Of a DNA stretch of 64,000 nt, positions 1-43,216 are shown in pieces. This DNA is from Escherichia coli. Its GTDB lineage: Bacteria; Pseudomonadota; Gammaproteobacteria; Enterobacterales; Enterobacteriaceae. Position 1 is the stretch's first letter; each line of letters opens with the position of its first letter. A program made the position numbers and the translations under genes. The stretch lies in NCBI RefSeq assembly GCF_050320075.1, contig NZ_CP190018.1. One strand, given 5' to 3'. Below the pieces are notes generated by a model, which worked only from the letters and a program-made list of their open reading frames with translations, did no database searches and had not been told where the DNA came from.

Positions 1-1
1 C

Positions 2-388
2 AAATATTACTGCGATCGCGCAATGGCTAAAAAGTTTGTGCTGAACTTCAGGCCCGGCTATGCCGCCAATATCAACGATTACCTCCCGGAAAAACTGTCG
101 ACACGTCTGGCTGAGGAGTCTGTTTCCCTGTGGCTGTCTACCTGTATTGCCGGTGTGGTGAAGCCTTATGCCAACGGTGCTCACGCATGGGAAATGAGCG
201 TTGTCAGAGTGCGTCGAAGCTGGTGGAAAAAACATCGGGATGAGTTTTCTTTACTGGAAGGGGATGCGTTCAGGCAGTGGTGCATTGAACAGCGGCAAGA
301 GCCGGAGATGGCAAACGTGATTTTAGTCACCGATGACGAAAGTTGCGGGTATTCGGCTATGGAAGGATTGACTGGCAAGGTTGGTTGA
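2..388 (+). CDS. cas3: Cas3 C-terminal region (partial, 5' end outside window)
   Basis: Open frame runs from position 2 with no upstream stop and ends at TGA 386-388, directly upstream of cse1; position matches cas3 in type I-E operons. No motif-level confirmation possible on this fragment. Confidence 0.55.
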   Translation, partial: KYYCDRAMAKKFVLNFRPGYAANINDYLPEKLSTRLAEESVSLWLSTCIAGVVKPYANGAHAWEMSVVRVRRSWWKKHRDEFSLLEGDAFRQWCIEQRQEPEMANVILVTDDESCGYSAMEGLTGKVG

Positions 389-2595: not shown

Positions 2596-3651
2596 ATGAC
2601 GACATTTATTCAGCTTCATTTGTTAACCGCTTACCCTGCTGCCAACCTTAACCGTGATGACACCGGTGCGCCAAAAACTGTGGTACTGGGTGGAGCAACG
2701 CGTCTGCGCGTTTCCTCACAAAGTCTGAAACGTGCGTGGCGCACTTCTGCACTTTTTGAACAGGCACTGGCGGGCCATATTGGTATTCGCAGTGGGCGTA
2801 TTGCGCGTGAGGCGGCAACTATCCTGATTGAGAAAGGCATCGAAGAGAAAAAAGCCATCGAATGGGCGGCAAAAATTGCGGATTATCTTGGGAAAGCTAA
2901 AAACGACAAAAAACCAAAAGATCCGCTCACTAACGCCGAAACTGAACAGCTAGTCCATATCAGCCCGGCAGAATTTGACGCCGTAAAAGCGCTGGCCCAT
3001 CAACTGGCCGAAGAAAAGCGCGCGCCAAAAGAGGAAGATCTCGCTTTGTTACGTAAAGATCGCATGGCGGTAGATATCGCTATGTTTGGTCGTATGCTGG
3101 CGAATAAACCCGAATTTAATGTTGAAGCCGCCTGCCAGGTCGCGCATGCATTTGGTGTCAGTGAAACGATTGTCGAAGATGATTTTTTCACCGCCGTTGA
3201 TGATTTGCGCCAGGCTTCTGAAGATGCCGGTGCCGGGCATCTTGGTGAAACCGGATTCGGTTCTGCGCTGTTCTACACCTATATCTGCATCGATAAAGAT
3301 CTGCTGGTCGAAAACCTCGGCGGTGACGAAGCGTTAGCTAATCAGACCTTGCGCGCCTTTACGGAAGCCGCACTTAAAGTCTCCCCAACCGGCAAACAGA
3401 ACAGCTTTGCCAGCCGTGCCTACGCCTCCTGGGCGCTGGCAGAAAAAGGCACTGAACAACCACGCTCTCTGGCGGCGGCTTTCTATGAACCCATTAATGG
3501 CACCCGGCAGTTAGATGTGGCGGTGCAGCGTATTACAACGCTTCGCGAAAATATGAATACGGTCTATGAACAGAAGACCGAATGCGCAAGCTTTGACGTG
3601 ATGAACAAACAGGGAAGCATGAAGGACGTGCTGGACTTTATCTGCGCGTAA
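2596..3651 (+). CDS. cas7: Cas7/CasC, Cascade backbone subunit
   Basis: 351 aa, third Cascade gene, RBS AAGGA upstream. Confidence 0.85.
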   Translation: MTTFIQLHLLTAYPAANLNRDDTGAPKTVVLGGATRLRVSSQSLKRAWRTSALFEQALAGHIGIRSGRIAREAATILIEKGIEEKKAIEWAAKIADYLGKAKNDKKPKDPLTNAETEQLVHISPAEFDAVKALAHQLAEEKRAPKEEDLALLRKDRMAVDIAMFGRMLANKPEFNVEAACQVAHAFGVSETIVEDDFFTAVDDLRQASEDAGAGHLGETGFGSALFYTYICIDKDLLVENLGGDEALANQTLRAFTEAALKVSPTGKQNSFASRAYASWALAEKGTEQPRSLAAAFYEPINGTRQLDVAVQRITTLRENMNTVYEQKTECASFDVMNKQGSMKDVLDFICA

Positions 3652-3661
3652 GGGGCGGCTA

Positions 3662-4408
3662 ATGAGCCAATATTTGATTTTTCAGCTTCATGGGCCAATG
3701 GCATCCTGGGGCGTCGATGCCCCCGGCGAAGTGCGTCATACCCATGAACTGCCTTCGCGCTCAGCATTGCTGGGGCTGCTGGCTGCCGGGGTAGGGATTC
3801 GGCGTGATGATACCGAACGATTAAACGCGTTTAACAGCCACTATTCACTGGTGGTTTGCGCCAGCCGTAACCCGCGCTGGGCACGGGATTATCACACGGT
3901 CCAGATGCCAAAAGAGGTGCGTAAAGCGCGTTATTTCAGCCGTCGCGAAGAGTTGAGCGCCCCTGATCTTCTGAGCGCGATTATCTCCCGGCGCGACTAC
4001 TACACCGATGCCTGGTGGATGGTGGCGGTGGCAACAACCCCCGATGCGCCTTACAGGCTTGAACAGTTGCAGGACGGTTTACGTCATCCGGTTTTTCCGC
4101 TTTATCTGGGGCGAAAAAGTCATCCGCTGGCGTTACCACTTGCGCCGTTACTGCTCGAAGGCAACGCGTCTGATGTCTTACGTAACGCATACCAACAGTA
4201 TCAGGATAGTTTCCGCGAACTGAAAGTCTCACTCCCGAAACTTCAGGATGAATGCTGGTGGGAAGGGGAACACGACGGCCTGGTCGCGAGCAAAATATTA
4301 CGTCGCCGGGATGTTCCTTTAAATCGTCAGCAGTGGCTGTTTGGGGAACGCACCATCAATCAGGGGCCGTGGCTCAGCAAGGAGGAACCATGTACCTCTC
4401 AAGAATAA
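3662..4408 (+). CDS. cas5: Cas5/CasD
   Basis: 248 aa; N-terminus MSQYLIFQLHGPMASWG resembles the CasD N-terminus (MRSYLILRLAGPMQAWG in K-12 as I recall). Confidence 0.85.
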   Translation: MSQYLIFQLHGPMASWGVDAPGEVRHTHELPSRSALLGLLAAGVGIRRDDTERLNAFNSHYSLVVCASRNPRWARDYHTVQMPKEVRKARYFSRREELSAPDLLSAIISRRDYYTDAWWMVAVATTPDAPYRLEQLQDGLRHPVFPLYLGRKSHPLALPLAPLLLEGNASDVLRNAYQQYQDSFRELKVSLPKLQDECWWEGEHDGLVASKILRRRDVPLNRQQWLFGERTINQGPWLSKEEPCTSQE

Positions 4409-5036
4409 CCTTACATACCGGCCAGCTTTCGCCTGCGCAGTTGCTGCATCTGGTGGATCGCGGTGAATATGTAATGCATCAGTGGCTGTGGGATCTTTTT
4501 CCTGGCGGCAAAGAAAGGCAATTTCTTTATCGTCGGGAAGAACTCCAGGGGGCGTTTCGCTTTTTTGTCCTGTCGCAGGAACGCCCGGCGGAAAGTGATA
4601 TTTTCACCATCGAATGCCGACCATTTGCGCCAGAGTTGCGTACCGGACAATCCCTTTGTTTCAACCTGCGGGCGAATCCAACAATTTGTAAAGCGGGCAA
4701 ACGCCACGACTTGCTGATGGAGGCGAAACGGCAGGTGAGGGGGCAGGTGGAAGGAAGTGATGTCTGGTTGCATCAACAACAGGCGGCGCTGGACTGGCTG
4801 GCAGCGCAGGGGGAAAGAAGCGGTTTTACACTACTGGATACCTCGGTCGATGCCTACCGACAACAGCAACTGCGGCGGGAAAACTCCCGGCAACTGATCC
4901 AGTTCAGTAGCGTGGATTATACGGGGATGCTTACGGTCACCGATCCTGGGTTATTTCTGCAACGTCTGAGCCAGGGGTATGGCAAAAGCCGCGCGTTCGG
5001 CTGTGGTCTGATGCTGATCAAACCCGGAGCAGAGGC

Positions 5037-5040
<4 letters not shown>
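4390..5040 (+). CDS. cas6e: Cas6e/CasE, crRNA endoribonuclease
   Basis: 216 aa from ATG 4390 (MYLSRITL..., cf. K-12 CasE MYLSKV...); GGAGGAACC RBS; overlaps cas5 3' end by 19 nt. ORF-track start 4252 rejected as extension. Confidence 0.85.
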
Positions 5041-6250
<1,210 letters not shown>

Positions 6251-6346
6251 GTTATCTGTTCTTTAAAAATAAGGAAATGTTTTAATTTAGTTGGTAGATT
6301 GTTGATGCGGAATAAATTTGTTTAAAAACAGTTATGTATGCTTAGT
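6251..6346 (+). promoter_or_regulatory. CRISPR leader (AT-rich, between cas2 stop and first repeat)
   Basis: 96-bp AT-rich segment immediately upstream of repeat 1 on the sense side; leader position next to cas2 as in E. coli CRISPR-I. Confidence 0.7.
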
Positions 6347-6985
6347 GTGTTCCCCGCGTCAGCGGGGATAAACCGACAATCAGATCACGATCGATGCCTC
6401 GCGTGAGGTGTTCCCCGCGTCAGCGGGGATAAACCGATTTTCGCAGCGGGTAACCGCGCCCGGCGATCGTGTTCCCCGCGTCAGCGGGGATAAACCGTTT
6501 ATGTGGAGTATCAGTGCCTGGGTGGAAAGGTGTTCCCCGCGTCAGCGGGGATAAACCGTGGGGCTGAGCATGGCTAAACAACCGAGGCGCGTGTTCCCCG
6601 CGTCAGCGGGGATAAACCGGTCAACTGGCACCACAGGATGATGGCGGCGAAGTGTTCCCCGCGCCAGCGGGGATAAACCGCAGGTCGACCGACTGGAGGC
6701 GGAGATTGTCGGGTGTTCCCCGCGCCAGCGGGGATAAACCGTGTTGTTTTTCTGCCGGATTAACGCGGTGCGAGTGTTCCCCGCGCCAGCGGGGATAAAC
6801 CGTTGTCGGGCTTGTTCGGCGCGGGTTGTTAACTGTGTTCCCCGCGCCAGCGGGGATAAACCGCCAGCGAAGGACTTGCTCGTGTGGTTAAAGCCGTGTT
6901 CCCCGCGTCAGCGGGGATAAACCGGACGCACTGGATGCGATGATGGACATCACTTGGAGTTCCCCGCCCCTGCGGTAGAACTCCC
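6347..6985 (+). CRISPR. Type I-E CRISPR array: 10 full 29-bp repeats, 10 spacers of 32 bp, plus a degenerate terminal repeat
   Basis: Repeat GTGTTCCCCGCG(T/C)CAGCGGGGATAAACCG at 6347, 6408, 6469, 6530, 6591, 6652, 6713, 6774, 6835, 6896 (period 61 bp); terminal degenerate repeat GAGTTCCCCGCCCCTGCGGTAGAACTCCC at 6957-6985. Sense strand is + (hairpin then AUAAACCG 5' handle). Confidence 0.97.
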
Positions 6986-7005: not shown

Positions 7006-8043
7006 TCAAGACGCCTTCGCCAGCTCTTTCACCAGCGGTAGCATTATCCGTATAACATCACGGCAGCGACGTTCTATTCTTCCAGGAAGCGCCTTATCAA
7101 TATGTTGTTGATTATCAAGCCTGACATCGTGCCAGCTTGTTCCCGCAGGGAAGGCGGCGGTTTTTGCACGTTGCTGATAGCCATCCTTATTCCCAAGATT
7201 CCAGTTAGTTGCCTCCACCGAAAGTACCGCAATACCGGCTTTGTCAAAAACTTCCGCGTCGTTACAGCACCCGGTACCCTTCGGATAATTTTTATTCAAA
7301 CCCGGATTGGTCGTTGCGGCAATTCCATGACTACGCGCAATTGCCAGCGCCCTGTCGCGCGTTAATTTCCTTACTGCTTCAGGGGTTTTTACACCGCTGT
7401 TGAAATACAATTTATCGCCAACAATTAAGTTATCGAGATTAATCACCAGCAGCGTATTTTTCTTTTCGGTGTCACTCATCCGCTTGAGTAAATTCTCAGC
7501 ACCTAATTTCCCTTCCTCTTCACCACTGGTCGCCACAAATCGAATACCATACTCGGTAGGCGTATTTTTCAGGCGTTCTGCCAGTTCCAGCATGACACCT
7601 AAACCTGCGGCGTTATCATCCATTCCTTGTAACGTCAGCCCGCCGAGATTGGCATCGGCGTCAGCATCGCTCAGCGGGGCGTATGTATCCAGATGCGCCA
7701 TAATGATGATCTGCTGCGGCGCTTTGCCTTCATGAGCGGCAATCACCGTACTTCCCGTCACGTTATGCCAGCTCTTGCGATTATCGCGGGCGGTATAAAT
7801 ATACCGACTATTAAATGTCCGAATATCACTGCGATAACCCATTTGCTGAAACTGTTGGCGAATATAATCGGCAGATAACATTTCTGCAGGAGTTCCGGTC
7901 ATGCGTCCCGGAAAGAAAGTAGCAATATGTCGTGCCTGAGTATTAGCAAAATCGCCAGGTTTAGGTGACGAGGCGTGTACGGGGAGAATAAAGCATACGC
8001 CGAGCGCCAGGGCAGCGGTACGGTGGCGCAATGCGGAAAACAT
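7006..8043 (-). CDS. iap: Alkaline phosphatase isozyme conversion aminopeptidase
   Basis: 345 aa with signal peptide; matches E. coli Iap; classic neighbour of the CRISPR-I array. Confidence 0.9.
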   Translation of the reverse strand: MFSALRHRTAALALGVCFILPVHASSPKPGDFANTQARHIATFFPGRMTGTPAEMLSADYIRQQFQQMGYRSDIRTFNSRYIYTARDNRKSWHNVTGSTVIAAHEGKAPQQIIIMAHLDTYAPLSDADADANLGGLTLQGMDDNAAGLGVMLELAERLKNTPTEYGIRFVATSGEEEGKLGAENLLKRMSDTEKKNTLLVINLDNLIVGDKLYFNSGVKTPEAVRKLTRDRALAIARSHGIAATTNPGLNKNYPKGTGCCNDAEVFDKAGIAVLSVEATNWNLGNKDGYQQRAKTAAFPAGTSWHDVRLDNQQHIDKALPGRIERRCRDVIRIMLPLVKELAKAS

Positions 8044-15870: not shown

Positions 15871-17010
15871 ATGAGCGCGGGAAGCCCAAAATTCACCGTT
15901 CGCCGCATTGCGGCTTTGTCACTGGTTTCGCTATGGCTGGCAGGCTGTTCTGACACTTCAAATCCACCGGCACCGGTCAGCTCCGTTAATGGCAATGCGC
16001 CTGCAAATACCAATTCTGGTATGTTGATTACGCCGCCGCCGAAAATGGGAACGACGTCTACAGCGCAGCAACCGCAAATTCAGCCGGTACAGCAGCCACA
16101 AATTCAGGCTACTCAACAACCGCAAATCCAGCCAGTACAGCCAGTAGCTCAGCAGCCGGTACAGATGGAAAACGGACGCATCGTCTACAACCGTCAGTAT
16201 GGGAACATTCCGAAAGGCAGTTATAGCGGCAGTACCTATACCGTGAAAAAAGGCGACACACTTTTCTATATCGCCTGGATTACTGGCAACGATTTCCGTG
16301 ACCTTGCTCAGCGCAACAATATTCAGGCACCATACGCGCTGAACGTCGGTCAGACCTTACAGGTGGGTAATGCTTCCGGTACGCCAATCACTGGCGGAAA
16401 TGCCATTACCCAGGCCGATGCAGCAGAGCAAGGAGTTGTGATCAAGCCTGCACAAAATTCCACCGTTGCTGTTGCTTCGCAACCGACAATTACGTATTCT
16501 GAGTCTTCGGGTGAACAGAGTGCTAACAAAATGTTGCCGAACAACAAGCCAACTGCGACCACGGTCACAGCGCCTGTAACGGTACCAACAGCAAGCACAA
16601 CCGAGCCGACTGTCAGCAGTACATCAACCAGTACGCCTATCTCCACCTGGCGCTGGCCGACTGAGGGCAAAGTGATCGAAACCTTTGGCGCTTCTGAGGG
16701 GGGCAACAAGGGGATTGATATCGCGGGCAGCAAAGGACAGGCAATTATCGCGACCGCAGATGGCCGCGTTGTTTATGCCGGTAACGCGCTGCGCGGCTAC
16801 GGTAATCTGATTATCATCAAACATAATGATGATTACCTGAGTGCCTACGCCCATAACGACACAATGCTGGTCCGGGAACAACAAGAAGTGAAGGCGGGGC
16901 AAAAAATAGCAACCATGGGTAGCACCGGAACCAGTTCAACACGCTTGCATTTTGAAATTCGTTACAAGGGGAAATCCGTAAACCCGCTGCGTTATTTGCC
17001 GCAGCGATAA
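15871..17010 (+). CDS. nlpD: Murein hydrolase activator lipoprotein NlpD (LysM + M23 peptidase domain)
   Basis: 379 aa, lipobox LAGC, Q/P-rich linker, LysM and degenerate M23 domain. Confidence 0.95.
16066..16160 (+). repeat. In-frame imperfect 24-bp tandem repeat inside nlpD (encodes QQPQIQPV-like units)
   Basis: Three consecutive 24-bp units starting 16066, 16090, 16114 plus a partial unit; read directly from DNA and translation. Confidence 0.6.
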
Positions 17011-19333: not shown

Positions 19334-20760
19334 TGGCATTTGATGATTTACGCAGCTTTTTACAGGCGCTTGATGACCACGGCCAGTTACTGAAAATCAG
19401 CGAAGAGGTGAACGCGGAACCGGATCTGGCAGCCGCTGCCAACGCCACCGGACGTATCGGCGATGTTGCACCGGCGCTGTGGTTTGACAATATTCGCGGC
19501 TTTATCGATGCCCGCGTGGCAATGAACACCATCGGTTCCTGGCAGAACCACGCGATTTCCCTCGGCCTGCCGCCAAACACCCCGGTTAAAAAACAGATTG
19601 ATGAGTTTATCCGCCGCTGGGATAACTTCCCCATTGCCCCGGAGCGCCGCGCCAATCCAGCCTGGGCGCAGAACACCGTCGATGGCGACGAGATCAACCT
19701 GTTCGATATTCTGCCTCTGTTTCGTTTAAACGACGGTGATGGCGGTTTCTATCTCGACAAAGCGTGCGTGGTTTCCCGCGATCCGCTTGATCCGGATAAC
19801 TTCGGCAAGCAGAACGTCGGCATCTACCGTATGGAAGTGAAGGGTAAGCGTAAGCTCGGTCTGCAACCGGTGCCGATGCACGATATCGCCCTGCATCTGC
19901 ATAAAGCGGAAGAACGCGGTGAAGATCTGCCGATTGCCATCACACTCGGTAACGATCCGATCATCACCCTGATGGGGGCCACGCCGCTGAAATATGATCA
20001 GTCCGAGTACGAAATGGCAGGCGCGCTGCGTGAAAGCCCGTACCCGATCGCCACCGCCCCGCTGACTGGTTTTGATGTGCCGTGGGGTTCAGAAGTGATC
20101 CTCGAAGGGGTCATCGAAAGCCGTAAACGCGAAATCGAAGGGCCGTTTGGTGAGTTTACCGGGCACTACTCCGGCGGGCGTAACATGACCGTGGTGCGTA
20201 TCGATAAAGTCTCTTATCGCAGCAAACCCATTTTTGAATCGCTCTATCTCGGGATGCCGTGGACGGAAATCGACTACCTGATGGGGCCAGCCACCTGCGT
20301 GCCGCTGTATCAGCAACTGAAAGCCGAGTTCCCGGAAGTGCAGGCGGTAAATGCCATGTACACCCACGGCCTGCTGGCGATTATCTCCACCAAAAAACGC
20401 TACGGTGGCTTTGCCCGCGCGGTGGGCCTGCGTGCGATGACCACGCCACACGGTCTGGGCTACGTGAAGATGGTGATTATGGTCGATGAAGACGTTGATC
20501 CGTTCAACCTGCCGCAGGTGATGTGGGCGCTCTCTTCGAAAGTGAACCCGGCAGGGGATTTGGTGCAGTTGCCGAATATGTCCGTGCTGGAACTCGACCC
20601 CGGCTCAAGCCCGGCCGGTATCACCGACAAGCTGATTATCGACGCCACCACGCCTGTCGCCCCGGACAACCGTGGTCACTACAGCCAGCCGGTGGTGGAT
20701 TTACCGGAAACCAAAGCCTGGGCTGAAAAACTGACCGCTATGCTGGCCGCACGTAAATAA
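19333..20760 (+). CDS. ecdC: UbiD-family (prFMN-dependent) aromatic acid decarboxylase subunit C
   Basis: 475 aa, UbiD-family length and motifs; start overlaps ecdB stop. Confidence 0.9.
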   Translation: MAFDDLRSFLQALDDHGQLLKISEEVNAEPDLAAAANATGRIGDVAPALWFDNIRGFIDARVAMNTIGSWQNHAISLGLPPNTPVKKQIDEFIRRWDNFPIAPERRANPAWAQNTVDGDEINLFDILPLFRLNDGDGGFYLDKACVVSRDPLDPDNFGKQNVGIYRMEVKGKRKLGLQPVPMHDIALHLHKAEERGEDLPIAITLGNDPIITLMGATPLKYDQSEYEMAGALRESPYPIATAPLTGFDVPWGSEVILEGVIESRKREIEGPFGEFTGHYSGGRNMTVVRIDKVSYRSKPIFESLYLGMPWTEIDYLMGPATCVPLYQQLKAEFPEVQAVNAMYTHGLLAIISTKKRYGGFARAVGLRAMTTPHGLGYVKMVIMVDEDVDPFNLPQVMWALSSKVNPAGDLVQLPNMSVLELDPGSSPAGITDKLIIDATTPVAPDNRGHYSQPVVDLPETKAWAEKLTAMLAARK

Positions 20761-20770
20761 GGAGAACAAG

Positions 20771-21007
20771 ATGATTTGTCCACGTTGTGCTGATGAACAG
20801 ATTGAAGTGATGGCGAAATCGCCGGTAAAAGATGTCTGGACGGTCTACCAGTGCCAGCATTGCCTCTATACCTGGCGCGATACCGAACCGCTACGCCGCA
20901 CCAGCCGCGAACATTATCCCGAAGCGTTCCGCATGACACAGAAAGATATTGATGACGCGCCGATGGTGCCGAGCATCCCGCCGCTGCTGGCGGAAGGTAA
21001 GCGCTAA
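20771..21007 (+). CDS. ecdD: Decarboxylase small subunit D (zinc-ribbon, CxxC...CxxC)
   Basis: 78 aa, MICPRCADEQ...YQCQHCLYTW, typical small subunit of BsdBCD/EcdBCD-type decarboxylases. Confidence 0.85.
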   Translation: MICPRCADEQIEVMAKSPVKDVWTVYQCQHCLYTWRDTEPLRRTSREHYPEAFRMTQKDIDDAPMVPSIPPLLAEGKR

Positions 21008-21010
21008 ATA

Positions 21011-21041
21011 AAAGGTCCGATGCCCATCGGACCTTTTTATT
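21011..21041. terminator. Bidirectional terminator between convergent ecdD and ygbN
   Basis: Stem GGTCCGATG/CATCGGACC flanked by an A-run and TTTTT. Confidence 0.7.
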
Positions 21042-21045
21042 AAGG

Positions 21046-22410
21046 TCAAATTACCGCCCATACGCACCAGGTAATTAAGAATCCGGTAAAACCGAGAATG
21101 GTCGTTAACACTGTCCAGGTTTTCAGACCGTCTGCTACCGATAACCCCAGATATTTGGTCACAATCCAGAACCCTGAGTCATTAATATGTGACGCGCCAA
21201 GCCCACCAAAGCAGGCTGCCAGCGTCACCAATACGCACTGAATCGGATTCAATCCCATCACCGCTTCTGAGAGTAACCCGCCGGTTGTCAGGATTGCTAC
21301 GGTTGCTGACCCCTGCGATGCACGCAGCGCCAGTGAAATAATAAATGCGGCTGGTAACAGAGGCAGGTCAATCATTTGTAGCATGTTGGCAAGGGCTTTG
21401 CCGACGCCCGATTCCACCAGCACTTTGCCAAATACCCCTCCAGCACCAGTAACCAAAATCACTACCGCCGCGGTGGGAAGGGCTGAGCCCATAATGTCGC
21501 TGGTGTGTTGTAAGCTCCAGCCGCGACGTAAAGCCAATAACCAGAATGCCAGCACCAGCGCAATCATTAGAGCTACCATTGGTGAGCCGATCAGCTGTAG
21601 CGTACCAAGCAGGGGATGCGAAGGCGGCATCAGTGTTGCGGAAACCGTACCCGCCATGATAATCGCGATAGGAATAACAATTAGCGAGGTGACCAGCGCG
21701 ACGCCCGGTGGATTTATTTTATCGCTTAATTTTGTCGCGCCTTCCTCACTGGCCGGAGCCAGTTGCATCTGTTCCAGTACTTCCACCGACATCGCATATT
21801 GGCGCTTATTGATTATTTTCGCTGCAAAGTAGCCAACAATCCCTACGGGAATAGAAATCGCAATACCGATGATGGTTAGCCAGCCGATGTCTGCGTGGAG
21901 TAACCCCGCTGCGGCGACAGGGCCTGGATGCGGCGGTACCGCCACATGAACAGTTAGCATGATTCCAGCGACAGGCAGGCCAAATTTGAGTGGCGATATT
22001 TTGGCAACCTTGGCAAAACCGTAAATGATTGGCGCAAGAATAATAAAGCCGACATCAAAGAAGACGGGAATACCGAGGAAGAACGCTGCCAGAGTCAGCG
22101 CAGCGATAGTTCGTTTGTCACCTAACTTGCGACTGAAATAATTAGCCAGTGACTCTGCACCACCAGAGTGTTCGATCATACGCCCCAGCATAGCGCCCAG
22201 ACCAATAATAATAGTGACGGAACCAAGCACACCGCCCATCCCGGCGATCATCACTTTACCCACTTCGCCCGCCGGTATACCCGCCGCAAGTGCGACTAAC
22301 AGGCTGACGAGGAGCAGAGCAACGAATGGTTGTACCTTTGCCTTGATGACCAGCAGCAACAGCATGATTACGCCAGTTAACGCAATGCATAACAATGTAA
22401 TTGTGGACAT
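21046..22410 (-). CDS. ygbN: GntP-family permease YgbN
   Basis: 454 aa polytopic membrane protein; E. coli YgbN. Confidence 0.93.
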   Translation of the reverse strand: MSTITLLCIALTGVIMLLLLVIKAKVQPFVALLLVSLLVALAAGIPAGEVGKVMIAGMGGVLGSVTIIIGLGAMLGRMIEHSGGAESLANYFSRKLGDKRTIAALTLAAFFLGIPVFFDVGFIILAPIIYGFAKVAKISPLKFGLPVAGIMLTVHVAVPPHPGPVAAAGLLHADIGWLTIIGIAISIPVGIVGYFAAKIINKRQYAMSVEVLEQMQLAPASEEGATKLSDKINPPGVALVTSLIVIPIAIIMAGTVSATLMPPSHPLLGTLQLIGSPMVALMIALVLAFWLLALRRGWSLQHTSDIMGSALPTAAVVILVTGAGGVFGKVLVESGVGKALANMLQMIDLPLLPAAFIISLALRASQGSATVAILTTGGLLSEAVMGLNPIQCVLVTLAACFGGLGASHINDSGFWIVTKYLGLSVADGLKTWTVLTTILGFTGFLITWCVWAVI

Positions 22411-23918: not shown

Positions 23919-25177
23919 GATAAAAACTCTCTTTGGGCTCGTGAAAAAAAGGCTTCATCACCGAAGTTGCCAGATTTAAGGGCGAGTGAGACAGGTTTAT
24001 CCAGTGCGTTTACCCACGGCACGCCGGGAGAAATGGTTGGGCCAATATGAAACCCTTTTATTCCCAGGCTCTGTGTGACTACGCCGGAGGTCTCACCGCC
24101 TGCGACAATAAAGCGTGTCACGCCTTCCGCTGCTAACCGCGCCGCTAGTTGAGAAAACAGTGTTTCTACTGCCTGACTGGCTTTTTGTGCACCGTATTGC
24201 TGTTGAATTGCTGCCAATGCGTCAGTGCTGGCGGTGGCAAAAACCAGTGGAGCAAGTACACTTTCCTGGCCCAGAACCCACTCTGCCAGTTCGTGTGCAT
24301 AAGCGGCCAGAGTTTCAATTGAGAGGCAGCGTGCCACATCAACTTCACGGGCTGGTGCAATTTGACGGTAATGTGCTACCTGGCGGTTGGTCATTTGAGA
24401 GCATGAACCGGAGAGCACTACGCCGCGCCCAGCGAGCGGATGCCCTGCTTTGCGAGCCTGGTTACCGTTTTCTTGCGCCCACTGCCGGGCAAGGCCAATC
24501 GCCAGACCAGAACCGCCCGTTACCAGTGGGGTATCGCGCAAGGCTTCTCCCTGAATTTCCAGATGGTGTTCGGTCAGCGCATCAAGCACCGCGTAGCGGT
24601 AGCCCTCTTGCTGTAAGCGAGCCAGCTCTTGACGAACGGCATCCACACCTTGTTCGAAAACATGTGCCGAAACGACGCCGCAGCGCCCTGTGGATTGCGC
24701 TTCAACCAGACGGGGAAGATAGCTGTCGGTCATGGGATTTACCGGGTGATGGCGCATCCCGGATTCGGCCAGCAGTTGATTCATTACGAACAAATACCCC
24801 TGATAAACCGTACGTCCGTTGACCGGCAGGGCCGGAGAGAAGACCGTAAACGGCGTGTCGAGAGCATCCATTAATGCATCGGTAACCGGGCCGATATTAC
24901 CTTTCGCCGAACTGTCGAAAGTAGAGCAGTATTTGAAATAGATCTGTTTGCAACCTTGCTGTTGCAACCAGCTCAGTGCCGCCAGCGATTGCTGTGTGGC
25001 TTCAACCACCGGACAGGAACGCGTTTTCAGGCTGATCACCAGTGCGTCGATTGCTTCCGGCATTTTACCTGTTGGAACACCGTTAATTTGTACCGTTGGT
25101 AGACCGTTTTCCACCAGAAAACTGGCGATATCCGTCGCGCCGGTAAAATCATCGGCGATAACGCCAATCTTGATCAT
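23915..25177 (-). CDS. ygbK: Four-carbon acid sugar kinase YgbK (OtnK)
   Basis: 420 aa; E. coli YgbK. Confidence 0.9.
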   Translation of the reverse strand: MIKIGVIADDFTGATDIASFLVENGLPTVQINGVPTGKMPEAIDALVISLKTRSCPVVEATQQSLAALSWLQQQGCKQIYFKYCSTFDSSAKGNIGPVTDALMDALDTPFTVFSPALPVNGRTVYQGYLFVMNQLLAESGMRHHPVNPMTDSYLPRLVEAQSTGRCGVVSAHVFEQGVDAVRQELARLQQEGYRYAVLDALTEHHLEIQGEALRDTPLVTGGSGLAIGLARQWAQENGNQARKAGHPLAGRGVVLSGSCSQMTNRQVAHYRQIAPAREVDVARCLSIETLAAYAHELAEWVLGQESVLAPLVFATASTDALAAIQQQYGAQKASQAVETLFSQLAARLAAEGVTRFIVAGGETSGVVTQSLGIKGFHIGPTISPGVPWVNALDKPVSLALKSGNFGDEAFFSRAQREFLS

Positions 25178-38740: not shown

Positions 38741-40563
38741 GCGCAATTTCCCTGATCAATAGTGGCGTGGCGTGGTTTGCCGCCGCCGCTGTTCTGGCAT
38801 TTCTCTTTTCTTTTCAAAAGGCGCTAAGCGGCTGGATAGCCGGAATTGGCGGCGCGGTGGGTAGCCTGTATACGGCAGCCGCGGGCTTCACTGTGCTGAC
38901 TGGTGCGGTTGGCGTGAGCGGTGCGCTGTCGCTGGTAAGCTACGATGTGCAAATCTCTCCGCTTAACGCGATTTGGCTGATTACGCTCGGCCTGTGCGGT
39001 CTGTTTGTCAGCCTCTACAACATTGACTGGCATCGCCACGCGCAGGTGAAATGCAACGGCTTGCAGATCAATATGTTGATGGCTGCCGCCGTCTGTGCCG
39101 TCATCGCCAGCAACCTCGGCATGTTCGTGGTAATGGCCGAAATCATGGCCCTGTGTGCGGTGTTCCTCACCAGCAACAGCAAAGAGGGCAAACTGTGGTT
39201 TGCGCTGGGGCGTCTTGGCACTCTGCTGCTGGCGATTGCCTGCTGGCTGCTGTGGCAGCGTTACGGCACGCTGGATCTGCGCCTGCTGGATATGCGTATG
39301 CAACAGCTGCCGCTCGGTTCCGATATCTGGCTGCTCGGTGTGATTGGCTTTGGCCTGCTGGCCGGGATTATTCCGCTGCACGGCTGGGTGCCGCAGGCAC
39401 ATGCTAACGCCTCTGCGCCAGCTGCCGCGTTGTTTTCTACGGTAGTCATGAAAATTGGCCTGCTGGGCATTTTAACCCTGTCGCTGCTGGGCGGTAATGC
39501 ACCGCTGTGGTGGGGGATCGCGCTGCTGGTGCTCGGCATGATCACCGCGTTCGTCGGTGGTCTGTATGCGTTGATGGAACACAACATCCAGCGCCTGCTG
39601 GCTTACCACACCCTGGAGAATATCGGCATTATCCTGCTGGGGCTGGGCGCTGGCGTAACGGGTATCGCGCTCGAACAACCGGCGCTGATTGCTCTTGGCC
39701 TGGTCGGTGGTCTGTACCATCTGCTTAACCATAGCCTGTTCAAAAGCGTACTGTTCCTCGGGGCGGGGAGCGTCTGGTTCCGTACCGGTCATCGCGATAT
39801 CGAAAAACTCGGTGGTATTGGCAAGAAAATGCCGGTTATCTCCATCGCCATGTTAGTCGGGCTGATGGCAATGGCTGCGTTGCCGCCGCTGAACGGGTTT
39901 GCCGGGGAATGGGTTATCTATCAATCCTTCTTCAAACTGAGCAATAGTGGCGCGTTTGTTGCCCGTCTGCTGGGGCCGCTGCTCGCAGTGGGTCTGGCAA
40001 TTACCGGTGCGCTGGCGGTGATGTGTATGGCGAAAGTCTATGGCGTCACGTTCCTCGGCGCGCCGCGTACCAAAGAAGCCGAAAACGCCACCAGTGCGCC
40101 GCTCCTGATGAGCGTAAGCGTGGTGGCACTGGCGATTTGCTGCGTAATTGGCGGTGTTGCTGCGCCGTGGCTGCTGCCGATGCTCTCTGCTGCTGTACCT
40201 CTGCCGCTGGAGCCTGCTAACACCACCGTTTCTCAACCCATGATCACGTTGCTGCTGATTGCCTGCCCGCTGCTGCCATTCATCATTATGGCGATTTGCA
40301 AAGGCGATCGTTTGCCGTCGCGTTCCCGCGGCGCGGCCTGGGTGTGCGGCTACGACCATGAAAAATCAATGGTGATTACTGCTCACGGTTTTGCCATGCC
40401 GGTGAAACAGGCGTTTGCGCCGGTGCTGAAACTGCGCAAATGGCTGAATCCGGTGTCGCTGGTACCGGGCTGGCAGTGCGAGGGGAGTGCGTTGCTGTTC
40501 CGCCGGATGGCGCTGGTTGAACTGGCGGTACTGGTGGTGATTATTGTTTCACGAGGAGCCTGA
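38737..40563 (+). CDS. hycC: FHL membrane subunit HycC
   Basis: 608 aa polytopic membrane protein (NuoL/M/N-like). Confidence 0.95.
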   Translation: MSAISLINSGVAWFAAAAVLAFLFSFQKALSGWIAGIGGAVGSLYTAAAGFTVLTGAVGVSGALSLVSYDVQISPLNAIWLITLGLCGLFVSLYNIDWHRHAQVKCNGLQINMLMAAAVCAVIASNLGMFVVMAEIMALCAVFLTSNSKEGKLWFALGRLGTLLLAIACWLLWQRYGTLDLRLLDMRMQQLPLGSDIWLLGVIGFGLLAGIIPLHGWVPQAHANASAPAAALFSTVVMKIGLLGILTLSLLGGNAPLWWGIALLVLGMITAFVGGLYALMEHNIQRLLAYHTLENIGIILLGLGAGVTGIALEQPALIALGLVGGLYHLLNHSLFKSVLFLGAGSVWFRTGHRDIEKLGGIGKKMPVISIAMLVGLMAMAALPPLNGFAGEWVIYQSFFKLSNSGAFVARLLGPLLAVGLAITGALAVMCMAKVYGVTFLGAPRTKEAENATSAPLLMSVSVVALAICCVIGGVAAPWLLPMLSAAVPLPLEPANTTVSQPMITLLLIACPLLPFIIMAICKGDRLPSRSRGAAWVCGYDHEKSMVITAHGFAMPVKQAFAPVLKLRKWLNPVSLVPGWQCEGSALLFRRMALVELAVLVVIIVSRGA

Positions 40564-40565
40564 GA

Positions 40566-41489
40566 ATGAGTGTTTTATATCCGTTAATTCAGGCGCTGGT
40601 GTTATTTGCCGTTGCGCCGCTGCTCTCCGGTATAACCCGCGTGGCGCGCGCCCGCTTGCATAACCGTCGCGGGCCGGGCGTGTTGCAGGAGTATCGCGAC
40701 ATTATCAAACTGCTGGGCCGCCAGAGCGTTGGCCCGGATGCCTCCGGCTGGGTGTTCCGCCTGACGCCGTATGTGATGGTGGGCGTCATGCTGACTATCG
40801 CTACTGCGCTGCCGGTGGTGACCGTTGGTTCTCCGCTGCCGCAGCTGGGCGATTTGATCACTTTACTGTATCTCTTTGCCATCGCGCGTTTCTTCTTTGC
40901 CATTTCTGGTCTGGATACCGGTAGCCCGTTTACCGCTATCGGCGCGAGCCGTGAAGCGATGCTTGGCGTGCTGGTTGAACCGATGCTGCTGCTTGGTCTG
41001 TGGGTCGCCGCACAGGTTGCCGGTTCCACCAACATCAGCAACATCACCGACACCGTTTATCACTGGCCGCTGAGCCAGAGCATTCCGCTGGTGCTGGCGC
41101 TTTGTGCCTGTGCATTCGCCACCTTTATCGAAATGGGCAAACTGCCGTTCGACCTGGCGGAAGCCGAGCAGGAGTTGCAGGAAGGTCCGCTCTCTGAGTA
41201 TAGCGGCAGCGGCTTTGGCGTCATGAAATGGGGTATCAGCCTGAAACAGCTGGTGGTGTTGCAGATGTTCGTCGGGGTGTTTATTCCGTGGGGACAAATG
41301 GAAACCTTCACCGTCGGTGGGCTGCTGCTGGCGCTGGTGATTGCCATCGTCAAACTGGTGGTTGGCGTCCTGGTTATCGCGCTGTTCGAAAACAGCATGG
41401 CCCGTCTGCGTCTTGATATTACTCCGCGCATTACCTGGGCTGGGTTTGGCTTTGCATTTTTAGCGTTCGTCTCCTTGCTGGCGGCGTGA
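40566..41489 (+). CDS. hycD: FHL membrane subunit HycD
   Basis: 307 aa membrane protein (NuoH-like). Confidence 0.95.
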   Translation: MSVLYPLIQALVLFAVAPLLSGITRVARARLHNRRGPGVLQEYRDIIKLLGRQSVGPDASGWVFRLTPYVMVGVMLTIATALPVVTVGSPLPQLGDLITLLYLFAIARFFFAISGLDTGSPFTAIGASREAMLGVLVEPMLLLGLWVAAQVAGSTNISNITDTVYHWPLSQSIPLVLALCACAFATFIEMGKLPFDLAEAEQELQEGPLSEYSGSGFGVMKWGISLKQLVVLQMFVGVFIPWGQMETFTVGGLLLALVIAIVKLVVGVLVIALFENSMARLRLDITPRITWAGFGFAFLAFVSLLAA

Positions 41490-41506
41490 TTAAAGAGAGT
41501 TTGAGC

Positions 41507-43216
41507 ATGTCTGAAGAAAAATTAGGTCAACATTATCTCGCTGCGCTGAATGAGGCATTTCCGGGCGTCGTGCTGGACCACGCCTGGCAGACCAAAGATC
41601 AGCTGACCGTGACCGTGAAGGTGAACTACCTGCCGGAAGTGGTGGAGTTTCTCTACTACAAGCAGGGGGGCTGGCTGTCGGTGCTGTTTGGTAACGACGA
41701 ACGCAAACTTAATGGTCATTACGCCGTTTACTACGTGCTGTCGATGGAGAAGGGCACCAAATGCTGGATAACCGTGCGCGTTGAAGTTGACGCCAACAAA
41801 CCGGAATATCCGTCCGTAACGCCGCGCGTTCCGGCGGCGGTATGGGGCGAGCGTGAAGTGCGCGATATGTACGGTTTGATTCCGGTAGGGCTGCCGGATG
41901 AACGTCGTCTGGTGCTGCCGGATGACTGGCCGGATGAACTTTATCCGCTGCGTAAAGACAGCATGGATTATCGTCAACGTCCGGCACCGACTACCGATGC
42001 TGAAACCTACGAGTTCATCAACGAACTGGGCGACAAGAAAAACAACGTCGTGCCGATTGGTCCGCTGCACGTCACTTCCGACGAACCGGGTCACTTCCGT
42101 CTGTTCGTCGATGGCGAAAACATTATCGACGCCGACTACCGCCTGTTCTATGTCCATCGCGGCATGGAAAAACTGGCGGAAACCCGCATGGGTTACAACG
42201 AAGTGACCTTCCTCTCTGACCGTGTGTGCGGGATCTGCGGCTTTGCTCACAGCACCGCCTACACCACGTCGGTGGAAAACGCGATGGGTATTCAGGTGCC
42301 AGAACGTGCGCAGATGATCCGCGCCATTCTGCTGGAGGTAGAACGCCTGCACTCGCATCTGCTCAACCTCGGCCTCGCCTGTCACTTTACCGGCTTCGAC
42401 TCCGGCTTTATGCAGTTCTTCCGCGTGCGTGAAACCTCCATGAAAATGGCAGAGATCCTTACCGGTGCGCGTAAAACCTACGGCCTGAACCTGATCGGCG
42501 GAATTCGTCGCGATCTGCTGAAAGATGACATGATCCAGACCCGCCAGTTGGCGCAACAGATGCGTCGTGAAGTGCAGGAGCTGGTGGATGTGCTGCTGAG
42601 CACACCGAACATGGAACAGCGTACTGTCGGCATTGGTCGTCTGGACCCGGAAATCGCCCGCGATTTCAGTAACGTTGGCCCGATGGTCCGCGCCAGCGGT
42701 CACGCCCGCGATACCCGTGCCGATCACCCGTTTGTTGGTTATGGCCTGCTGCCAATGGAAGTCCACAGCGAGCAGGGCTGCGACGTTATTTCCCGTCTGA
42801 AAGTGCGTATCAACGAGGTCTATACCGCGCTGAACATGATCGACTACGGTCTGGATAACCTGCCGGGCGGTCCGCTGATGGTGGAAGGCTTTACCTATAT
42901 TCCGCACCGTTTTGCGCTGGGCTTTGCCGAAGCGCCGCGCGGCGACGATATCCACTGGAGCATGACCGGCGACAACCAGAAGCTGTACCGCTGGCGCTGC
43001 CGTGCCGCGACCTACGCGAACTGGCCGACCCTGCGCTACATGCTGCGCGGCAACACCGTTTCCGATGCGCCGCTGATTATCGGTAGCCTGGACCCTTGCT
43101 ACTCCTGTACCGACCGCATGACCGTGGTCGATGTGCGTAAGAAGAAGAGCAAAGTGGTGCCGTACAAAGAACTCGAGCGTTACAGCATTGAGCGTAAAAA
43201 CTCGCCGCTGAAATAA
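41507..43216 (+). CDS. hycE: Hydrogenase 3 large subunit HycE
   Basis: 569 aa from MSEEKLGQHY; NiFe-binding RVCGICGFAHS and C-terminal DPCYSCTDR. Confidence 0.96.
   Translation: MSEEKLGQHYLAALNEAFPGVVLDHAWQTKDQLTVTVKVNYLPEVVEFLYYKQGGWLSVLFGNDERKLNGHYAVYYVLSMEKGTKCWITVRVEVDANKPEYPSVTPRVPAAVWGEREVRDMYGLIPVGLPDERRLVLPDDWPDELYPLRKDSMDYRQRPAPTTDAETYEFINELGDKKNNVVPIGPLHVTSDEPGHFRLFVDGENIIDADYRLFYVHRGMEKLAETRMGYNEVTFLSDRVCGICGFAHSTAYTTSVENAMGIQVPERAQMIRAILLEVERLHSHLLNLGLACHFTGFDSGFMQFFRVRETSMKMAEILTGARKTYGLNLIGGIRRDLLKDDMIQTRQLAQQMRREVQELVDVLLSTPNMEQRTVGIGRLDPEIARDFSNVGPMVRASGHARDTRADHPFVGYGLLPMEVHSEQGCDVISRLKVRINEVYTALNMIDYGLDNLPGGPLMVEGFTYIPHRFALGFAEAPRGDDIHWSMTGDNQKLYRWRCRAATYANWPTLRYMLRGNTVSDAPLIIGSLDPCYSCTDRMTVVDVRKKKSKVVPYKELERYSIERKNSPLK

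Follow-up and report, generated by a model that had tools for sequence, protein, structure and literature searches.

The cas2–iap CRISPR1 array of an Escherichia coli I-E1 locus: blocks of repeat variants, a conserved trailer end and two spacers matching a prophage

We consider it highly probable that the array at positions 6347–6985 of the window (the whole 64,000-nucleotide stretch of Escherichia coli DNA analyzed here) is an I-E1 CRISPR1 array with a leader-proximal block of variant repeats formed by templated duplication, an ancient trailer end, a spacer set left by deletions from a longer array, and two spacers, S4 and S5, retained as memories of a temperate phage. The array as such is an ordinary E. 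coli CRISPR1, and its block structure, its terminal repeat and the scarcity of its database targets are all features of a documented kind; it offers a clean natural example of the leader-proximal repeat serving as the template for new repeats.

Upstream of the array, on the plus strand, are seven complete cas genes of type I-E, each above the respective NCBIfam cut-off: casA/cse1 of the I-E1, non-K-12 variant (486–2048; TIGR02547, 607.7 bits), casB/cse2 (2045–2581; TIGR02548), cas7e/casC (2596–3651; TIGR01869), cas5e/casD (3662–4408; TIGR01868), cas6e/casE, encoding the repeat-hairpin endoribonuclease (4390–5040; TIGR01907), cas1e (5037–5960; TIGR03638), and cas2e (5957–6250; TIGR01873), with the starts of casA and cas6e taken from the RefSeq annotation. 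The window opens with the 3′ end of cas3 (1–388, plus strand), recognized by identity to E. coli YZLc1-3 (NZ_CP123240.1): over its first 7096 bases the window matches that genome with no mismatches, base 1 corresponds to position 42606 of the compared YZLc1-3 segment, and the cas3 gene annotated there at 40294–42993 is intact, completing the I-E cas operon. Between cas2e and the first repeat lies an AT-rich leader of 96 nt (6251–6346, plus strand), which is of the leader-A, or O157, type and is unchanged in all 15 lineage arrays compared; a simple sigma-70 scan of the leader yielded no promoter-like site, which says little about transcription. Downstream of the array are iap (7006–8043, minus strand; NF007568, 703.9 bits), the flank that defines CRISPR1, and cysD. 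Thus, the array occupies the cas2–iap position, with the leader on the cas2 side and the degenerate repeat at the far end, as is characteristic of CRISPR1.

The array is the chromosomal E. coli CRISPR1 (CRISPR2.1) of the type I-E majority variant, that is, I-E1 with O157-type cas genes, leader-A and GTG repeats. The assignment to this variant follows from the failure of the CasA product against the K-12-type model NF007247 (101 bits, below the cut-off of 576) and from the leader and Cas2 being closest to those of O157:H7. The same variant has been named cas-EO/leader-A/CRISPR-A (Diez-Villasenor et al., 2013, PMC3737337) and I-E1 (Almendros et al., 2014, PMC3903273). The O157:H7-type array shares with the window the cas2–iap position, GTG repeats of 29 nt, spacers of 32 nt, the anchor spacer and the degenerate terminal repeat; its leader is identical at 92 of 96 positions, and Cas2 shows 96 identities in a 98-column alignment. 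It differs in its other spacers and in its leader-side repeats, which are canonical, with C at position 13 (C13), whereas those of the window carry T (T13). CRISPR1 of K-12 (I-E2, cas-EK, leader-T) resembles the window in locus, repeat family, related anchor spacer and terminal repeat, and in having T13 in the repeat preceding the anchor spacer, but its repeats start with GAG, its leader is identical at only 77 of 112 positions, and its Cas2 shows 81 identities in 98 columns. CRISPR2 of YZLc1-3, located between queE and ygcE and outside the window (20566–21814 of the compared segment), consists of 21 GAG-type repeats, all of them C13, and one genome therefore holds both repeat sub-variants, GTG in CRISPR1 and GAG in CRISPR2.

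The array comprises ten repeats of 29 nt and ten spacers of 32 nt with a period of 61 nt (repeat starts at 6347 + 61n), followed by one degenerate terminal repeat. All ten full repeats begin with GTG and differ from the type I-E type-2 repeat consensus GWGTTCCCCGCGCCAGCGGGGATAAACCG (29 nt) at no more than one position. Repeats R1–R5, which with spacers S1–S5 form the T13 block (6347–6651), and R10, which with S10 occupies 6896–6956, read GTGTTCCCCGCGTCAGCGGGGATAAACCG; repeats R6–R9, forming with S6–S9 the canonical C13 block (6652–6895), read GTGTTCCCCGCGCCAGCGGGGATAAACCG. The degenerate terminal repeat (6957–6985), GAGTTCCCCGCCCCTGCGGTAGAACTCCC, begins with GAG and has ten mismatches to the consensus (positions 2, 12, 15, 20–23, 25, 26, 29), only one of which precedes position 12; all these elements are on the plus strand. 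Re-reading of the sequence thus bears out the earlier note in its call of a CRISPR array, its distribution of T13 and C13 over the repeats, the uniform GTG starts, the first spacer as quoted, and the GAG-initiated terminal repeat diverging after position 11 (mismatches within 12–29, plus position 2). A search against Rfam gave nothing above the gathering thresholds, and Tandem Repeats Finder reported two short tandem repeats with a 24-nt period elsewhere in the window, at 16069–16133 and 25062–25108.

According to the predicted fold of the repeat RNA, positions 5–11 and 16–22 form a 7-bp stem closed by a loop at positions 12–15, GCCA or GUCA, which places position 13 second in the tetraloop of the predicted Cas6e stem-loop. 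The C13 and U13 forms have equal predicted hairpins of equal energy (−15.2 kcal/mol). The terminal repeat is predicted to fold differently, lacking the canonical Cas6e hairpin, and on this prediction the 3′ end of the S10 crRNA may be left unprocessed.

The array was compared with complete E. coli genomes. A megablast search with the array region matched 4299 out of 5426 of them, always on the chromosome, and the features beneath the matches, among the matches listed, were CRISPR, cas2e and iap. The exact array is present in two of the 5426 genomes, YZLc1-3 (chicken, China) and Ec-U3 (human), and S4 occurs as a CRISPR spacer in 134 genomes. The possibility raised earlier that the array is an ordinary lineage marker largely holds, as it is nested in a family of at least 134 complete genomes. 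With its exact form in two out of 5426 complete genomes and a family of about 134, it is a fine-scale marker with little import beyond strain typing.

Sixteen arrays with spacers beyond S10 in common with the window were parsed, together with a plasmid copy. Their comparison yields the longer ancestral order x2 x3 x4 S1 S2 x5 x6 S3 S4 S5 | x1 S6 S7 y1–y4 S8 S9 | S10, where x and y denote spacers of the relatives, and the strains differ mostly in having lost single or multiple repeat-spacer units. The array of the window lacks x5–x6, x1 and y1–y4, while x2–x4 were either lost or never acquired. Since relatives have the further C-block spacers x1 and y1–y4, the ten spacers of the window are what deletions have left of a longer ancestral array. 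An ectopic internal insertion of x1 in the ST38 branch was also considered and dropped, as strain Ch1 has both x6 and x1.

The lineage array has also reached a plasmid. The conjugative IncHI2A plasmid pIOMTU792 (NZ_LC542972.1, 240387–252968) carries a chromosomal segment with the genes from casB to cas2, the ten-spacer array of the lineage and iap; casA and cas3 are not among the genes annotated in that stretch. As ISEcp1–blaCTX-M-15 lies within a few kb of this segment, the fragment was probably mobilized by ISEcp1.

Evidence on the origin of the blocks comes from the linkage of repeats and spacers. In every relative examined the repeat variant travels with its spacer: T13 precedes spacers x2 to S5, C13 precedes x1 to S9, and T13 precedes S10. 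Independent assemblies of 17 E. coli chromosomes replicate this linkage, as do one plasmid and two metagenome contigs. The ST38-like arrays and that of GMF054 have x6-S3-S4-S5 in common and then differ on the leader side, the former having x5, S2, S1, x4, x3 and x2 (six spacers) and the latter 12 private spacers, each after a T13 repeat. Thus, the T13 block has grown in two diverging branches, as templated duplication of the leader-proximal repeat predicts. EC581 has C-block spacers in common with the window, yet canonical repeats up to the leader. Taken together, these comparisons indicate that the T13 block R1–R5 represents a derived leader-proximal variant, apparently copied whenever a further spacer was acquired.

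Established knowledge of type I-E systems suggests how this would proceed. The array would be transcribed from the leader; Cas6e would cut at the 3′ base of each repeat hairpin, producing 61-nt crRNAs; Cascade and Cas3 would attack spacer-matching DNA with an AWG PAM; and Cas1–Cas2 would insert new spacers at the leader–repeat junction, duplicating the first repeat. A C-to-T substitution in the leader-proximal repeat, at position 13 in the loop, occurring after the acquisition of the C-block spacers and no later than that of S5, would be inherited by all later repeats, because the first repeat is the template of duplication; this would produce the T13 block R1–R5 and leave R6–R9 as the older, canonical repeats. 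It has been suggested that stretches of conserved repeat variants arise because new repeats copy the adjacent one (Touchon and Rocha, 2010, PMC2886076). Similarly, in CRISPR1 of Salmonella Schwarzengrund three consecutive repeats carry the T13 variant; canonical repeats come next and after them another variant block, and the variant run has been interpreted as duplication of adjacent repeats (Touchon and Rocha, 2010, PMC2886076, Table S6). This array differs from the window in genus, in spacers and in the placement of the T13 run towards the trailer end. In addition, the E. coli "consensus" repeat printed in the Introduction of PMC3737337, CGGTTTATCCCCGCTGACGCGGGGAACWC, has T13 in place of the usual C13, and the T13 form is thus already in the literature as though typical. 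E. coli I-E systems are generally reported to be silenced in the laboratory (PMC10910852).

R10, which the earlier note had grouped with R1–R5, does carry T13 but has a separate origin. S10, or copies of it with one to three mismatches, is found in 4241 of the 5426 genomes, making it a species-wide conserved anchor spacer, and T13 stands before it in K-12 and O157:H7 (A12 T13 in both), 2013C-4991, MLI106K4, EC581 and M18. All six strains have a near-identical degenerate terminal repeat closing the array, and in further strains, too, an identical or nearly identical sequence lies on the iap side. To judge from these sequences, T13 of R10, S10 and the terminal repeat constitute an ancient trailer end common across E. 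coli and separate from the R1–R5 block.

Of the two explanations offered earlier for the block-wise variation, acquisition history is the one favored by the linkage and the two growing branches, and recombination is not needed here. We nevertheless regard as unlikely, rather than negligible, the alternative that the block boundaries reflect recombination or gene conversion, either between the arrays of different strains or between CRISPR1 and CRISPR2, instead of mutation and templated duplication. The two alleles do alternate in unrelated lineages, in the order c-T-c-T in Ec-U9-2 and T-c-T in A10; the repeat preceding S10 provides every array with a T13 donor; and earlier work has inferred recombination among the CRISPR arrays of E. 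coli (PMC3903273). An origin of the C block in the genome's own CRISPR2 is, however, ruled out, as the repeats there are GAG throughout and the GTG/C13 block could not have been copied from them. An identical S6 in the CRISPR2 array of EC-129 might likewise hint at exchange, but its neighbors on both sides are unrelated, fitting independent capture of one protospacer, and the continued growth of the T block on the leader side, along two diverging branches, is explained by duplication without extra events.

The recurrence of the same two alleles is the sole mildly unexplained point. Switching between C13 and T13 at the leader end is seen in at least three lineages with unrelated spacers (that of the window, A10 and Ec-U9-2), in one case reversed: an unrelated T13 block in A10 comprises 16 units, and Ec-U9-2 and 18SZHZ655Rt have, counting from the leader, canonical repeats, 12–19 T13 repeats, one canonical repeat and the T13 trailer repeat. 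Such recurrence is poorly explained by one random mutation, and hence some of the boundaries could be due to recombination or gene conversion. That loop position 13 is a recurrent switch site, rather than the place of a single mutation, is a tentative proposal which we hold to be rather doubtful. The mechanism could be deamination of loop cytosines in the folded, single-stranded repeat at the time of spacer integration, or short-patch gene conversion from the T13 trailer repeat found in every array; the other loop variants observed, A12 and T14, are also C-to-T changes on one or the other strand. If either mechanism operates, natural arrays would record a mutational signature of the integration intermediate.

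It is very improbable that T13 is a selected functional variant altering Cas6e processing or Cas1–Cas2 integration. At least three lineages have gained or fixed it as their leader-proximal repeat, and it adjoins the leader in 222 genomes; on the other hand, the predicted fold and energy of the two forms are identical, position 13 sits in the tetraloop, many acquisitions have taken place under both alleles, and one lineage has gone back to C13. Sequencing or assembly errors, named earlier as a possible source of the T/C differences, can be practically dismissed, given the identical pattern in the independent assemblies listed above and the exact GTG…T13 repeat in 1476 of the 5426 genomes, mostly in a single copy.

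The spacers, whose targets the earlier note had to leave unassigned, were compared with complete E. coli genomes, and two of them now have a match. S4 (6559–6590) is identical at 32 of 32 positions to a site where ninG begins in a prophage shared by STEC384 and STEC379, and comparison with the whole STEC384 prophage showed S5 (6620–6651) to be identical, again at 32 of 32 positions, to a site inside its terL; S1–S3 and S6–S10 gave no target in the searches made. The PAM on the spacer-identical strand is ATG at both sites, conforming to AWG. CWT (equivalent to AWG) is the valid PAM of the majority variant, with CAT (ATG) the commonest in nature, and the K-12 acquisition PAM is CTT only (PMC3737337); the ATG PAM of the two identified protospacers is a further likeness to the O157:H7-type I-E1 system. 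None of the complete E. coli genomes has both the S4 spacer and the S4 target, and no self-targets of S1–S4 were found in the YZLc1-3 and Ec-U3 genomes.

The STEC384 prophage (NZ_CP091029.1, 2641500–2681900) is about 40 kb long, adjoins ttcA, and combines a RecE/Gam/NinG early region with myovirus-like baseplate genes; its TerL has 68–70% protein identity to that of temperate phages of Klebsiella and Pectobacterium. Further spacers match it as well: x2 of the lineage sister arrays (31/32, ACG PAM, inside a DUF1073 gene) and, from CRISPR2 of the host genome, spacer 8 (31/32, ATG PAM, inside a DUF2213 gene) and spacer 19 (28/32, AAA PAM, in the lysis-gene region). For the 174 distinct spacers of all collected arrays, including those of K-12, O157:H7, W, A10, GMF054 and Ec-U9-2, 26 match the prophage at six or fewer mismatches, compared to 0.0005 expected by chance, and the same spacers give no matches to the controls, namely, the chromosomal flank of the prophage and the rest of the window. 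Among the prophage sites with at most four mismatches, the PAM is ATG or AAG in 19 out of 27. At least S4 and S5 appear, from these matches, to be memories of a temperate phage like that of STEC384 beside ttcA.

Spacers of E. coli have been reported to match phage databases rarely, with most matches falling in one prophage cluster (Dion et al., 2024, PMC10910852); a prophage matched by 26 spacers is consistent with this heavily targeted cluster. S4 and S5 add one more case of E. coli spacers mainly recalling temperate phages, of a kind scarce in phage databases and present as prophages in a few genomes.

Spacer 6 of EC581, located at the array position of S9, has four mismatches to the STEC384 prophage (5949–5980 of the segment), with an ATG PAM, and all four mismatches fall at codon third positions. 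S9 itself (6864–6895) looks like a more diverged homologue of this site and may target a related phage.

Neither S1–S10 (at E ≤ 1) nor the sister spacers x1–x6 matched INPHARED phages, and PLSDB plasmids contained no protospacer for the spacers searched, the matches dismissed there being the plasmid-borne array copy, mislabelled chromosomes, and chance GC-rich matches in Ralstonia and Azospirillum. Scans of IMG/VR with S1–S7 and S9 (N at every sixth position) gave no matches for each, as did scans of GTDB genomes with S6 and with a pattern spanning S7 and its E. coli W variant, and the best site in the rest of the 64-kb window has nine mismatches. A scan of JGI metagenomes with S1 retrieved two contigs, both of them E. 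coli arrays. A search of complete E. coli genomes with S1–S3, x2 and x3 gave four places on plasmids; as the search with S1–S9 gave no plasmid match, these involve x2 or x3.

Several spacers recur in other arrays. Besides the identical S6 of EC-129, M18 has a copy of S3 with two mismatches beside a spacer overlapping x5 with a 6-nt shift, and in E. coli W the S7 target is represented by a spacer taken from its other strand, offset by 3 nt and with two mismatches (positions 18 and 24). Since S3, S6 and S7 have such identical, near-identical or overlapping counterparts in unrelated arrays, their targets seem to be real invaders that have been sampled repeatedly, and the W-type counterpart of S7 is suggested to occur also in O103 and O111 strains.
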